Below, piece after piece: positions 22,697-35,507 of a stretch of 35,507 nt of DNA. Numbering within the stretch: the first letter of the stretch is position 1; every line of letters begins with the position of its first letter. The notes under the pieces are model-generated. The model did not search any database and had not been told where the DNA came from. It saw nothing but the letters and a program-made list of their open reading frames with translations. Source of the stretch: Candidatus Fermentibacterota bacterium. Its GTDB lineage: Bacteria > JAFGKV01. Both the position numbers and the translations under genes were made by a program. Where the stretch lies: positions 1 to 35,507 of the forward strand of contig JAFGKV010000155.1 in NCBI GenBank assembly GCA_016928395.1. The letters run 5' to 3'.

Positions 22697-24937
22697 CTAC
22701 CGCAGGAGCACACACGGCTGCTCCGCGGTATAGTCTGCGGTAGCCATGCGGCACACGTAGATCCCCGGAGAGACCCGCTGCCCCTTCATGCCGGTGCCGT
22801 CCCACAGAACCGAATGCGCGCCCTCGGCCGCGCTGCCCCGCACCAATGTCCGGACATGCCTGCCTGTAAGATCGTGGACCGTTACCGTCACCTCCGTTTC
22901 GCCGGCCAGCGAGTAGCGAATCCACACGGCGCCAAGAGAGGGATTCGGGTAGGATCCGTGAAGACGCGTGACGGCGGGAGCGGGGTCATCCTCCGCATCC
23001 ACCGGGGGCACCTCCACGGTGACTGTGTTGGACGGGCCGGATTCGCCACCTTGGTACACGGCGGTCACATGGTAGCCATACGCGCCGTCGGCAAGGCCGC
23101 GATCGTCGTACTCGGTCTCCACCACAGTCGAGGCGGTGATTCGCTGCTGATCGCGGTAGACATAATACCCCAGCAGCCCCCGGGACACACCCGCAGGCTC
23201 TCTCCATGCAAGGTGCACATCATGCCCGTACACCTCAGCATTCAGGCTCTCCGGGCAGGCAAGGCCGCCGGTGATCTCTATACTCAGCAGGTATGCGCCG
23301 ATGAGCTCTCCACCTGCGGGAGGGTCGGCGCAGGCCACTCTCAGGAAGTAGTATCCCTGCTGCGGCGTGGTGTAGCTGATCTCGGGCTGCAAATCGCCGT
23401 GGCTGTTGTCATCCGATGCCACGAATGCCTCGGGATCAACGTCCGACCCGTCCTCAAGGTGCGGCCCGTACAGACGAAACTCCGCGTCTAGTTCGCACCC
23501 GGGAATGGTCTCCGTGAACATGCGGAGCTCGACTCCGCCCTCAGAGTAGAAGCGGAGCCAATCCCTGTCTCCCTCGCGGCAGATGGTCTGCGCCAGGTCC
23601 ACGACCTCCAGCGCGAGCAGGATTGCCGCCGACGGTTCGTCGTTGCCGTCAGGACAGGTCAGATCACTGCCGATATCCAGGATGACTCCCTCGATGACCG
23701 TCAGGTTGTAAGGAAGACCCTGGGGAACGAGATACCACGCATCCGCATAGCCACCCCATCCGAAGTTCAAGTGATAGTACCCGTTGGTGTTATAGCCGTC
23801 GACCACGAGGTTGTGTCCCGCATTCCACTGAGGCGTCACCACGGCCAGGTGAGCGGGCAGCGCGTCGATCATGTTGAGGGCAAGATGCCGGTGGAGCAGG
23901 GGGGCTGCCGGGCCCGCCAGCTCGACCTCATCGTGGCCGAACCGCAGGTAGGCCTGATGCGCCTGGTCTACACTGAAGGTGCCGGAGCCCTGAGAGCTGT
24001 ACACTTGACGGGCGGCAATGCCGCACCCGAAGACGACGGCGGCCTTGTCGGTGTTCGTCATCGCCGTGGCGCTTTCGTAATGGGCGGTGAGCGTATCCAG
24101 GTAGACGTTCAGCTCAGGAAATGAAGGGAAGCCATGGGGTTCATGATCATCATCGATCCAGTACTGGCCCGCATAGTTGTGGAAGTAGTCATCCGCATCG
24201 GAAAAGCGGGTGTCGTTCAATGATCCGTGATAGGTGAGTATCTGGGCCATGGCCACGGCGGGGCAGCCCGCAAGACTCCTCTGGCCCGTGGTCGGATCGA
24301 CCGGGCAGAGGTTGTTGTACGGCGGATCCTGCGTCCACCTGGTGGCGACCCACCCGCCGGTGGAGGTGGTCCCCGGCGGAGGCCATTGATGAAACTCCCT
24401 GCCGAAGACTGAGGCCCCGGCCGCCCGAACACCCGCGTCCCACATCTGGCGGATCTCGGTGCGCGGGGAGTCCCGGAGCCCCTGGCCGTGCGCCAGTCGA
24501 AGCTGTAGATCACTTTCTAGCAGAGCCAACAGCGGATTTTCTCCCTCGACTGGGGCATGGAGGGGGCTGTGCAGGGAATACGCGATCACGGGCGGCAGGG
24601 CATCGTCTGCCGCGATGATGATGAAACCCAAAGGTCTGATCTCGAACCCGTAGGCCAGGGTGTTCCCGGCATCATCCCGCACCGTCTCCGTGGCTGTGGC
24701 TAAGACCCGGCCCCCGCCCGGGGCCAAATCGCCGAGCGCGGCCTCTGCCACCCGCGCGGCGGTGGCCTCATCCACGGGCGCAGCCCGGAGAAACCCTCCC
24801 GGCAGCATGGCCAGGGCCGCCACGGCGATCAGGCCGACCACAGGCCGAGCGTGCGAGAAGGCCGATAACGGCCCCACCCGCCGGCCGGAAGGGGCAAATG
24901 GGAATCCCGCGAACCCAAAGACCTTCGTCGTACTCAC
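22697..24937 (-). CDS. C10 (streptopain-like) cysteine peptidase with propeptide, PPC-like, FN3-like and FlgD-Ig/T9SS-type C-terminal domains
   Basis: WTQDPPYN..CP, AGCPAVAMAQ (Cys), GHNLVVDGY (His), HLNFGWGG; C-terminal YPNP...HDLTGRHVRTL...WDG...GIYVCR; AAGGAG before GTG 24937. Confidence 0.93.
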   Translation of the reverse strand: MSTTKVFGFAGFPFAPSGRRVGPLSAFSHARPVVGLIAVAALAMLPGGFLRAAPVDEATAARVAEAALGDLAPGGGRVLATATETVRDDAGNTLAYGFEIRPLGFIIIAADDALPPVIAYSLHSPLHAPVEGENPLLALLESDLQLRLAHGQGLRDSPRTEIRQMWDAGVRAAGASVFGREFHQWPPPGTTSTGGWVATRWTQDPPYNNLCPVDPTTGQRSLAGCPAVAMAQILTYHGSLNDTRFSDADDYFHNYAGQYWIDDDHEPHGFPSFPELNVYLDTLTAHYESATAMTNTDKAAVVFGCGIAARQVYSSQGSGTFSVDQAHQAYLRFGHDEVELAGPAAPLLHRHLALNMIDALPAHLAVVTPQWNAGHNLVVDGYNTNGYYHLNFGWGGYADAWYLVPQGLPYNLTVIEGVILDIGSDLTCPDGNDEPSAAILLALEVVDLAQTICREGDRDWLRFYSEGGVELRMFTETIPGCELDAEFRLYGPHLEDGSDVDPEAFVASDDNSHGDLQPEISYTTPQQGYYFLRVACADPPAGGELIGAYLLSIEITGGLACPESLNAEVYGHDVHLAWREPAGVSRGLLGYYVYRDQQRITASTVVETEYDDRGLADGAYGYHVTAVYQGGESGPSNTVTVEVPPVDAEDDPAPAVTRLHGSYPNPSLGAVWIRYSLAGETEVTVTVHDLTGRHVRTLVRGSAAEGAHSVLWDGTGMKGQRVSPGIYVCRMATADYTAEQPCVLLR

Positions 24938-25237
24938 ATCTGTCTCCTTCCCTGCTGCCGTGGCAACAACCCCGCGAGAACCGGGGGATCGGCCTTTCGT
25001 GCTCATGTCGCACAGGAAACTCACCGGCGCTGCGGCTCGCAACCTCCGGGTGCGCTGCGGTCTCTTGACGGCGCGGAGGATCCTCGACCAAGGAGGCCGG
25101 GCGGAGAGAACAAATGTCGTCGCCCCCTCGCCGATGCTCCCATACCTTTGGGACTATCGAACAAGGTGGAGTACGTTCACCGGCGCCTGCCAGGACGCCG
25201 CGCGCGCCCGGGACCCTCACCAGAAAGGAGTGCCGCC

Positions 25238-29113: not shown

Positions 29114-29290
29114 GTGATCACGAAGCGACTCATTGCCGCCGCGGTCGGCGCGGGGTTAGGCTGGGGATTCAGCTATCTGTCCCGCTGCTCCGGCGGGGTT
29201 TGAGCTCTCACCTCCAACCCCTGGTCAGGGGTTCTGATCGGCGCACTCATCGGATATATGGCGTTCGGCCCACGCCCGCCATCCGACTGA
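29114..29290 (+). CDS. Putative 58-aa membrane selenoprotein, DUF6132-like
   Basis: MITKRLIAAAVGAGLGWGFSYLSRCSGGV-U-ALTSNPWSGVLIGALIGYMAFGPRPPSD; in-frame TGA at 29201-29203; GGAG RBS at 29099-29102. Confidence 0.82.
29216..29233 (+). promoter_or_regulatory. Candidate bacterial SECIS element
   Basis: AACCCCU-GGUC-AGGGGUU, 7-bp perfect stem after a 12-nt spacer from UGA, loop starting with G. Confidence 0.72.
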
Positions 29291-32834: not shown

Positions 32835-33142
32835 CAGGCGGAGCAAAGCACGCTGACCATTCACCACGCGCCCCGAGAAATGGCAGGCCAAAAGCAGCGA
32901 GCATTCACAACGTGAAGGGTTGCCGTCTGTACCGGTTCTTGGATTTTTGGTCTCCGGTCCGCCCGCCCGTGGTCCTGAGCGGGGTCCGTTTGACAGACCG
33001 ATCCTGCCCAAGCTGATTGTCGGTTGGTCATCCGTGGGTGCGAACCGCGGCAGGTGCAGGTGCGTCTTGGAGTGCTCACCGCGTGGTGGGCTTTCGGGAA
33101 ACGACGCCAGAACGGGCCCGGCGCCCGCAGAAGGAGGGGTCC

Positions 33143-33883
33143 ATGAGACCGATCATTGCTGTGTGCAGCGTGCTGGCGATCCTCGCCCCAGGTCAGCTCT
33201 GGGGCAAGGACTGGGCGCTTGAGCTGGAGGGATCATGGTGCGTAACTCATCTGGATGATGAGTTCTACGACCTGGAGGCCACCACCGCGGTGGGCCTCAG
33301 CGCGGCTGCCAACCTGTCGTACGGGAGGGCATACTCCCGTGTCGAGTACGCGCTGAGCTGGTCCTGCCATCCCGATGACCAGCACGGCCTGCAAGTCGAT
33401 CGCGGCGATGCCTTCGTCCTTCTCGGGTATCGGGTCCTGAATGCCCCACAGATCCTGCCGTACTTCGGGTTTCGCCACGTGTCGACCGGCGCAGGTCCCG
33501 GCAATCCCGGCGCGAGCACGCGTGACTCTCGGTATCAGGGCTGCGGCATAGGCCTCCGTGTCGAGAACGCCTCTGGCGAGAAAGGGATTGCGGGATTCGC
33601 CGACGGCTTCCTGCTCCCCTGGGGAAGTTGGGAGAGCGAACGGCACAACTCTTCCGTCATGCCAGGCGAGGGGCCGAGCGAATACTGGGAGGACGACTCG
33701 CCGCGTTGCTACGGCGGGAGTGTTGGCGCATCCTACCAGTTACCTCAGAGCAAGGCATCGCTCGTTGCAGACGTTCGGTTCGTAGTCACACGCCACGAAT
33801 CCGAGGAGCCGGGCACCTTTGATACGCAGCGCTTCGAACAGATCTGGCAGGGAGTCACCCTGGGCTTGAGGTACGAGTTCTAG
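33143..33883 (+). CDS. Probable outer-membrane beta-barrel protein
   Basis: AAGGAGG RBS, signal peptide, alternating beta-strand patterns, C-terminal VTLGLRYEF. Confidence 0.8.
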   Translation: MRPIIAVCSVLAILAPGQLWGKDWALELEGSWCVTHLDDEFYDLEATTAVGLSAAANLSYGRAYSRVEYALSWSCHPDDQHGLQVDRGDAFVLLGYRVLNAPQILPYFGFRHVSTGAGPGNPGASTRDSRYQGCGIGLRVENASGEKGIAGFADGFLLPWGSWESERHNSSVMPGEGPSEYWEDDSPRCYGGSVGASYQLPQSKASLVADVRFVVTRHESEEPGTFDTQRFEQIWQGVTLGLRYEF

Positions 33884-34479: not shown

Positions 34480-34514
34480 AGAAACGCACAGGGCGAGCCG
34501 TGAGGCCCGCCCTG
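34480..34514 (-). terminator. Probable terminator of the Omp28-like gene
   Basis: Minus-strand hairpin CAGGGCGGGCC-UCAC-GGCUCGCCCUG followed by UGCGUUUCUU, 21 nt after the stop. Confidence 0.55.
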
Positions 34515-34535: not shown

Positions 34536-35507
34536 CTACGGAGTTCCCCCGACCAGACCGAACTCATACTCGGAGACACGGTCTGACTGCCACATGCTCT
34601 GATCTTGGGGGTTCCTGGCGATGACCAGGTAGGTCCAGTTGGCGTCGGGATTATTAATGCCCTCGGCCGTTGACCAGGTGGTGGCCGGCGCCTGTACCAC
34701 CGCGACGCGATTGGAAAACGGCGGCCTGACATCCGGCAGGAAGTGCGGGGCATTCGCCACGCCGAACACCCAGTATTCCGTGGCCATGAACACCGGCGCC
34801 CAGGTGAGCAGGATCTCACCGTTGGCGACCTGCTCAGACAGGGAGTTGGTGACGCCATGCAGCAGAGCGCCCTGATGGATCACCCTGGTCTCGGGGTTTT
34901 GGAAGAAGCCCACGATGGTGCAGGACTTGTTCCTCCACCCCGTGCTCAACGTGAACTCCTGATCGATGACCTCGACGGACTCTCCCGGCGCCAGGGCAAA
35001 ACACGTATTCTCACCGAAGTCAACCTGCACTACCGTGTAGTACAGGTGCGTTTGATTCTGCCAAGTATACGCGGTGTCATCGCCCGTGGCATTGAGGTGA
35101 ATGCACCCGGTCACCTCGTTGTCACTAACATTGGTGACCTTCGCTCTGACCGTGCCGACGCCGTTTCGGGGGCTGTATGACTGGAGTTCGATGGACATGG
35201 CCACCGGACTGTCGATCACCTTTCGTGTATTGAAATAGGGCCAGTAGTTGATGGGATTGGTGTGGTTGCCGCCAAGGTGACGAATAGACCCATCAAACCA
35301 GACTTGAGGCGTTCCGCCGCCACCATAGTACTGGTAACGCGCGTCGCAGCCGGGTACCTCAAAGGGATCGGTACCGTAGGTGTGATACGCGATGGGAGCC
35401 AGGGAGTCACCCACGGCCGTGTGAAGATTGCGCAGGCCCATCACGGAGCCTGGACAGTAGTATCACCCGTTCCCGATGAACTCTTCCGCCACCACCACGC
35501 GCTGAAC
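34536..35507 (-). CDS. Omp28-like thioredoxin-fold selenoprotein candidate (5' end outside the window)
   Basis: VQRVVVAEEFIGNG-U-YYCPGS with TGA at 35465-35463; IAYH, YY...GTPQVWFDG, IVGFFQN...VIHQGA; extra C-terminal domain. Confidence 0.85.
35433..35452 (-). promoter_or_regulatory. Candidate bacterial SECIS element
   Basis: CAGGCUC-CGUGAU-GGGCCUG, 7-bp stem (one G-U) after a 10-nt spacer from UGA, G at second loop position. Confidence 0.68.

Follow-up and report, generated by a model that had tools for sequence, protein, structure and literature searches.

A predicted exported Omp28-like protein with a probable selenocysteine codon in a thioredoxin-type UxxC motif in Candidatus Fermentibacterota

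The window analyzed in this study, i.e., the whole stretch of 35,507 bases from a Candidatus Fermentibacterota bacterium (GCA_016928395.1, JAFGKV010000155.1), is an entire contig, C196 of genome G000. From base 35507, its minus strand reads VQRVVVAEEFIGNG, followed by a TGA and by YYCPGSVMGL..., and the translation then meets no other stop until a TAG codon (Table 1). The original prediction had described this frame as open from the window edge through the TGA into a 302-aa ORF, and our re-translation gives the same picture. It had likewise stated that the ORF track starts only past the TGA; the table-11 list indeed lets the 302-aa ORF begin at GTG 35444. Since the window comprises the whole contig, the upstream start of the gene cannot be read from it. 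No other contig of the genome contains the last 150 bases of the window contig, and the gene upstream of one orthologue (L050, see below) maps inside contig C93, so that synteny offers no link to the missing 5' end. Among the assembled contigs of four sequencing runs, one from a relative of the 87% type extends beyond the window end, and the likely source run yielded only short, unrelated pieces. From two metatranscriptome runs, one single 31-base piece with loose ends was obtained in one versus nothing in the other.

The gene faces a series of unrelated plus-strand genes, with which it converges; they code for QueA, a PAS histidine kinase and an exported protein without a name. No operon partner of the gene was seen in the window. 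Three further features of the window are worth recording in their own right. At 29114-29290 (+), a short ORF contains an in-frame TGA in a C-x4-U context (VITKRL...SRCSGGV-U-ALTSNPW...) and ends at a second TGA; it is the second of the two candidates within 6.5 kb that the original prediction had counted. At 22697-25042 (-), a 781-aa protein is encoded that combines a Peptidase_C10 (streptopain-like) domain and a Spi inhibitor propeptide with FlgD_ig/Por_Secre_tail-like C-terminal domains; it is likely a T9SS-type secreted cysteine protease. Finally, a 288-aa ORF at 33017-33883 (+) comprises an internal signal-peptide-like stretch, MRPIIAVCSVLAILAPGQLWG, gave no Pfam match and ends with ...LGLRYEF, which resembles the terminus of an outer-membrane beta-barrel.

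Table 1. Positions of the predicted gene, its domains and the associated signals within the window.
Feature	Position	Strand	Remarks
Predicted Omp28-like selenoprotein CDS	34536..35507	minus	323 codons visible, including one in-frame TGA; stop TAG 34538-34536; 5' end cut by contig end
Predicted selenocysteine codon TGA	35463..35465	minus	visible residue 15; position 1 of U-Y-Y-C; Cys in 131/136 relatives
GTG, table-11 ORF start, then ATG 35441-35439	35442..35444	minus	false start that results if the TGA is taken as stop
SECIS-like hairpin UGU.CAGGCUC [CGUGAU] GGGCCUG.GCA	35429..35456	minus	+10 to +37; 7-bp core 35452-35433
Thioredoxin-like domain	35217..35507	minus	visible residues 1-97; UxxC at N-terminus of helix 1
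Ig-like beta-sandwich domain	34842..35210	minus	residues 100-222
C-terminal FN3-like domain	34539..34841 (up to 34862 for the recurring domain)	minus	residues 223-323; ends ...EYEFGLVGGTP
Terminator-like GC-rich hairpin	34489..34514	minus	11 pairs, T-rich tail; 22 nt past the stop codon

At E <= 1e-3, a family profile search returned 4,931 cluster representatives, and 101 of them also passed E <= 1e-30. Of 167 proteins that were aligned, 136 cover the active site, while 31 do not extend to it. At the site, C-x-x-C was found in 131 of the 136 proteins, S-x-x-C in two, and G-x-x-C, C-x-x-V and N-x-x-D in one each. The TGA is thus placed opposite a conserved Cys, far beyond what chance would give, and the claim that UGA replaces the attacking Cys of a CxxC motif is in line with the relatives. 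The N-terminal pattern of Omp28-type proteins that was given in the original prediction matches the usual context of the relatives as well (V-V-x-E-x-F/G-T-G-T-W-C-x-Y-C-P-G-A). Among the 150 listed database representatives, 13 begin 14-48 profile positions past the U site; these were excluded from the Sec count, as they are indistinguishable from fragments without the DNA.

A metagenome scan for orthologues yielded four loci. The first (L049, 79% identity) begins with ATG and a signal peptide, MRSARMIMISAAVLVAMGLAPASA, which would be cut before VQR, and then shows the same TGA. The second (L050, 74% identity) is built in the same way, with ATG, the signal peptide MNAARLMAGAAVLVALGLSPALA, a predicted cut before VQR and the same TGA. 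In both, the N-terminal mature sequence VQR.VVAEEF.G.G directly precedes the TGA, and the frame is conserved on both sides of it. A more distant locus (L052, 52% identity) has Cys at the site. The remaining one (L051, 69% identity) carries GGA (Gly) at 637-639, one base from TGA, within an uninterrupted ORF with a signal peptide; this Gly marks either a redox residue that was lost naturally or an inactive variant, and it shows that the site can be lost. The start codon and signal peptide that the original prediction wanted to see upstream of the TGA are thus present in two orthologues, but the 5' end of the window gene itself lies off the contig, and for this gene both elements are predicted from these orthologues. 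A scan of the genome contigs with the family alignment gave 57 pattern matches, none of which was confirmed.

Of the database proteins, the nearest are P0002-P0004 (73-87% identity), all unnamed and all shortened just past the TGA: P0002 and P0004 start at the Met after it and P0003 seven residues further on. Such public gene calls, with which the table-11 ORF list agrees, would fit a reading in which a short ORF upstream terminates at the TGA and the 302-aa ORF from GTG/ATG 35444/35441 is the genuine gene, encoding a cytoplasmic protein without redox motif. However, its product would be left without half of strand 1 and without the first active-site residue of the thioredoxin fold, and it would miss the signal peptide that every full-length relative possesses. 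Furthermore, the 14 codons upstream of the TGA are conserved as protein in the orthologues, with synonymous differences, and the Gly-form L051 reads across the site as one uninterrupted ORF. We therefore regard the shorter gene as very unlikely.

Within the phylum, which is represented by three species genomes in the GTDB set used, paralogues with and without the TGA occur side by side. In the genome of the window (G000), the TGA is found at the site on contigs C196 (the window), C153 (W-U-GSCP) and C331 (SG-U-SSCP), and Cys on C150 (TGC), C26 (TGT) and C85 (codon not read). The congener G001 has TGA on C438 and C160 and Cys on C316 (TGC) and C226 (TGC), and G002, another genome of the family, comprises a Cys form on C89 (TGC) and no TGA form. 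A signal peptide was detected in every complete TGA-form paralogue.

Downstream of the UGA, the original prediction had noted a 7-bp hairpin that begins at nt 11, and folding located it there. The core stem CAGGCUC/GGGCCUG (7 bp) carries the loop CGUGAU and is prolonged by three extra pairs beyond a bulged C, while the apical loop holds G22 and U23 (numbered from the U of UGA). The hairpin resembles the SECIS element of E. coli fdhF in that it lies inside the ORF right after the UGA, with a bulged pyrimidine under the upper stem and with GU in the apical loop; the fdhF counterparts are numbered G23/U24. In contrast to fdhF, its sequence is unrelated and its loop of 6 nt reads CGUGAU, and an Rfam scan of 35200-35507 at E <= 10 revealed no family match; we consider it a candidate SelB site. 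Its folding energy is -13.8 kcal/mol, versus -9.7 on average after dinucleotide shuffling (z -1.75); among 200 such shuffles, 11 were as stable, and the mononucleotide-shuffle z is 0.54 for 66 nt. By itself, the energy is within chance, and it was not used as evidence; conservation tests were employed instead. A hairpin can form at this place in relatives of the Cys and Gly form too, in the case of the Cys form because the CCN codons for Pro are able to pair with the GGN codons for Gly; a part of the hairpin is thus owed to such codons.

In these conservation tests, the hairpin was found to be kept in all three TGA orthologues (the window gene, L049 and L050). The stem differs among them at just two pairs, by A-U to G-U and by U-G to U-A, and pairing is preserved at both. 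Of the conservation and covariation that had been proposed as a check, the former was consequently observed, but the latter was not: none of the stem pairs changed on both sides among the three orthologues. In the other three TGA clades, different hairpins follow the TGA, and their apical loops carry GU at a distance of 24-27 nt, counted from the U of UGA. At the codon level, 199 degenerate residues are conserved among the three TGA orthologues over the whole gene, and at 64 of these the codons are identical. Over the 13 codons past the UGA this proportion is 7/10 versus 56/188 elsewhere (one-sided Fisher p 0.013), and the best 13-codon windows, all ten listed, begin at codons 8-19. Comparisons with the Gly-form L051 gave no excess of codon identity (5/11, 6/12, and 3/11), and L051 has four synonymous changes in the hairpin region, which is nearly invariant among the TGA forms. 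A second clade (C153 compared with G001:C438) shows the same trend, with 9/11 versus 122/237 (p 0.045). Judged from these small samples, synonymous sites are most conserved right after the UGA, and in TGA forms only.

The genes for selenocysteine insertion, which the original prediction had suggested to look for, are all found in the same genome: a tRNA-Sec (anticodon TCA) at C59:4177-4274, selA (527 bits, above the curated cut-off), selB (342 bits versus a cut-off of 242) and selD in two copies (395 and 370 bits, above the curated cut-offs). As a side observation, the second selD copy (G000:C22:4999-5931, +) has an in-frame TGA of its own and would be a selenoprotein form of selenophosphate synthetase. 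TGA is also the commonest ordinary stop codon of this genome, in which 944 of the 1678 open frames with at least 400 codons terminate in TGA. Since it ends most of the long open frames, a reassigned genetic code is excluded. No tRNA with the anticodon TCA other than tRNA-Sec was found in the genome.

The window gene might alternatively be a pseudogene, in which a recent TGC/TGT to TGA nonsense mutation hit a Cys-form Omp28-like gene and left the downstream ORF as a decaying remnant. The TGA is only one base away from the Cys codons of the paralogues, and the energy of the hairpin alone is unremarkable, both of which would fit such a history. However, the TGA has been kept in orthologues at 74-79% protein identity, in which about half of the synonymous codons have changed and the frame is intact on both sides, and a TGA stands at the same site in three further paralogue clades from two genomes. 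The synonymous constraint right after the UGA and the full Sec machinery of the genome speak against decay as well, and we give a pseudogene very little chance.

Least probable of all is a decoding of the TGA as Trp, Gly or Cys by near-cognate or suppressor tRNAs instead of selenocysteine: the Gly codon (GGA) at the site of L051 would suit it, and Sec machinery can insert Cys at UGA when selenium is scarce, but against it stand the use of TGA as the commonest ordinary stop, the tRNA-Sec as sole tRNA with the anticodon TCA, the classic Sec/Cys pair formed with 131 of 136 relatives and the SECIS-like hairpin after the TGA.

The TGA is thus very probably a selenocysteine codon. The marks by which a bacterial selenoprotein gene is recognized are found together, namely a TGA opposite Cys, conserved flanks, a downstream hairpin that is kept among the orthologues, and tRNA-Sec, SelA, SelB and SelD in the genome. 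Altogether, we are confident that the locus is a gene, cut at its 5' end, for an exported protein of three domains, and that its TGA is very likely decoded as Sec, which would then take position 1 of a UxxC active site of the thioredoxin type.

An AlphaFold2 model of the visible protein (pLDDT 79, pTM 0.74) consists of three domains, although the pLDDT at the active site (residues 11-20) is just 59. The thioredoxin fold, the Ig-like domain and the extra C-terminal domain that had been proposed from the sequence are all seen in the predicted structure (Table 1). In an exhaustive structure comparison, the best match is 5y1a, the 35-kDa hemin-binding protein HBP35 of Porphyromonas gingivalis (Z 21.3, rmsd 2.5 A, 213 residues aligned, model residues 1-222), followed by the DUF1223 protein 2axo (Z 17.9, residues 1-248), the crystallized domain of Omp28, 2r2c (Z 11.2, residues 100-222), the Fn3-like 3mpc (Z 10.1, residues 215-320) and thioredoxin 7q3j (Z 9.7, residues 4-97). 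In the model, UYYC occupies residues 15-18, directly before the helix 19-35. When the family profile was compared with thioredoxin 1nho (E 0.004), the U column was matched to the leading Cys of CPYC, and the cis-Pro loop was aligned through its V-P; Pro67, which precedes strand 3 and is invariant in the relatives, corresponds to this cis-Pro loop. Both hallmarks of a thioredoxin fold, a CxxC-type motif at helix 1 and a cis-Pro loop before strand 3, are accordingly present.

To which known family the protein belongs was assessed with curated profiles. In the accessible text of Zhang and Gladyshev (2008; PMC2398784), a 'hypothetical protein GOS_C' is described that combines a Trx-like fold with a UxxC motif and is accompanied by SECIS-like hairpins. 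It is represented there by 74 sequences with Sec and 312 with Cys, and the sequences in Dataset S2 read ...VVMVEDFTGLN-U-PYCP... (PMC2398784). A table of a 2026 review, in the portion available, puts GOS_C under NCBIfam NF045500 (PMC13188914). The NCBIfam name of this profile is 'Omp28-related selenoprotein'. As far as these sources describe GOS_C/NF045500, the window protein resembles it in having UxxC in a Trx-like fold, a Sec/Cys pair, a hairpin after the TGA and the same strand-plus-motif pattern. It differs in its motif, which is GNG-U-YYCPGS versus the usual TGTW-C/U of the family, in its C-terminal FN3-like domain, and in its origin from a sediment-type lineage and not from marine plankton. 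The comparison with GOS_C was made via the NF045500 profile. On the window protein, NF045500 scored 25.9 bits (E 5.8e-6), with residues 2-212 aligned to positions 38-262 of the 377 in the profile, and thus stayed below the cut-off of 200. With such a score, NCBI's pipeline would leave the protein unnamed.

The Omp28 lipoprotein profile NF033782 gave a similar result, with 27.7 bits versus a cut-off of 150 (E 1.4e-6, residues 1-209), again below the cut-off, and a Pfam search with the window protein, PF11551 included, returned no match at E <= 1. In an alignment of 61 proteins (A2), comprising the window protein and 60 relatives, NF045500 matched all 61 (E <= 1e-3), NF033782 matched 59 and PF11551 matched 49. 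The designation 'Omp28-like' of the original prediction consequently holds at the superfamily level, at which 49 of the 61 proteins match PF11551, but does not hold by the curated cut-offs (26-28 bits versus 150-200). With Omp28 (PF11551/NF033782), the window protein shares the Ig-like domain, which matches the partial structure 2r2c with Z 11.2; in contrast to Omp28, Sec replaces Cys. The signal peptides of L049 and L050 end with ...APASA|VQR and ...SPALA|VQR, and no lipobox Cys was seen when they were judged by eye; on the evidence of these orthologues, the window protein is not predicted to be a lipoprotein. From the profile comparisons, we place it as a divergent branch of the GOS_C/Omp28 superfamily, of which it is a member by none of the curated profile tests. 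In the literature collection that was searched, no paper contains 'Omp28' together with 'selenoprotein'. The kind of protein itself has been catalogued since 2008 (GOS_C/NF045500), and the window gene is an added, mis-annotated member of this kind.

HBP35 is of particular value for the question of function, since it is exported as well and combines Trx-like and Ig-like domains. In the accessible part of the published work, recombinant HBP35 reduces insulin in vitro, and its C48S/C51S mutant is inactive (PMC2907840). Because this reduction depends on CxxC, a role as thiol- or selenol-disulfide oxidoreductase may be envisioned for the window protein. However, HBP35 has Cys and not Sec, the two proteins share a sequence identity of 15%, and their C-termini differ, with a T9SS C-terminal domain in HBP35 and the FN3-like domain in the window protein. 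In alignment A2, the T9SS type A sorting domain TIGR04183 is present in 37 of the 61 proteins; on the window protein, neither Por_Secre_tail (PF18962) nor TIGR04183 gave a match, and its FN3-like domain matched no Pfam or NCBIfam family. This domain takes the place of the T9SS tail of the relatives and may be specific to the lineage, serving in anchoring or sorting at the C-terminus.

The following course of events can be proposed. SelB-GTP with Sec-tRNA(Sec) would bind the hairpin at 35456-35429 while the ribosome stands at the UGA, which would lead to the insertion of Sec. The preprotein would then leave the cytoplasm via the Sec translocon, and its signal peptide would be cleaved before VQR. 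In the periplasm or at the cell surface, the selenolate of Sec15 might attack the disulfide of a substrate (or a sulfenic or peroxide species) and form a Se-S intermediate, which Cys18 could resolve, and a reductant would recycle the resulting Se-S bond. Within the envelope, the Ig-like and FN3-like domains might keep the redox domain in place or bring it into position. The redox function as such, the substrate and the recycling partner are suggested by analogy.

If this reading is correct, a recurring mis-annotation of public databases is corrected, as the closest database orthologues are unnamed and shortened just past the TGA. Because the NF045500 model misses this divergent branch, annotation pipelines will go on overlooking such genes. 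The locus would furthermore be a clear added case for the small set of bacterial selenoproteins that act outside the cytoplasm, and the Sec, Cys and Gly forms side by side represent a natural series on which the benefit of selenium in an exported thioredoxin-fold enzyme could be studied. The gain is nevertheless incremental, given that this kind of protein has been known since 2008. One might speculate further that a poorly sampled lineage has expanded its envelope selenoenzymes, with four Omp28-like Sec clades, Cys paralogues beside them and at least one loss to Gly. In such a scenario, the Sec forms would sit on a lineage-specific FN3-like domain, the conserved ...R-x-G-E-x-D/E-F...P-COOH tail of which replaces the T9SS sorting domain, and this domain would be a new surface sorting or anchoring signal on dozens of exported proteins of the phylum. 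We regard this wider scenario as rather doubtful at present.

Independent of its role, the distribution of the FN3-like C-terminal domain was recorded. It recurs 19 times in the genome of the window at E <= 1e-3, on contigs C172, C235, C186, C148, C231, C25, C286, C153, C281, C53, C4, C333 and others of G000. The proteins that carry it are otherwise unrelated and about 230-1600 aa long. In 15 of the 19 copies, the domain ends at most six codons from the stop, typically with ...R-x-G-E-x-D/E-F/Y-x(3-5)-P-stop. Two other genomes of the phylum gave 33 and 15 matches to the whole protein as query, most of them to the C-terminal domain.
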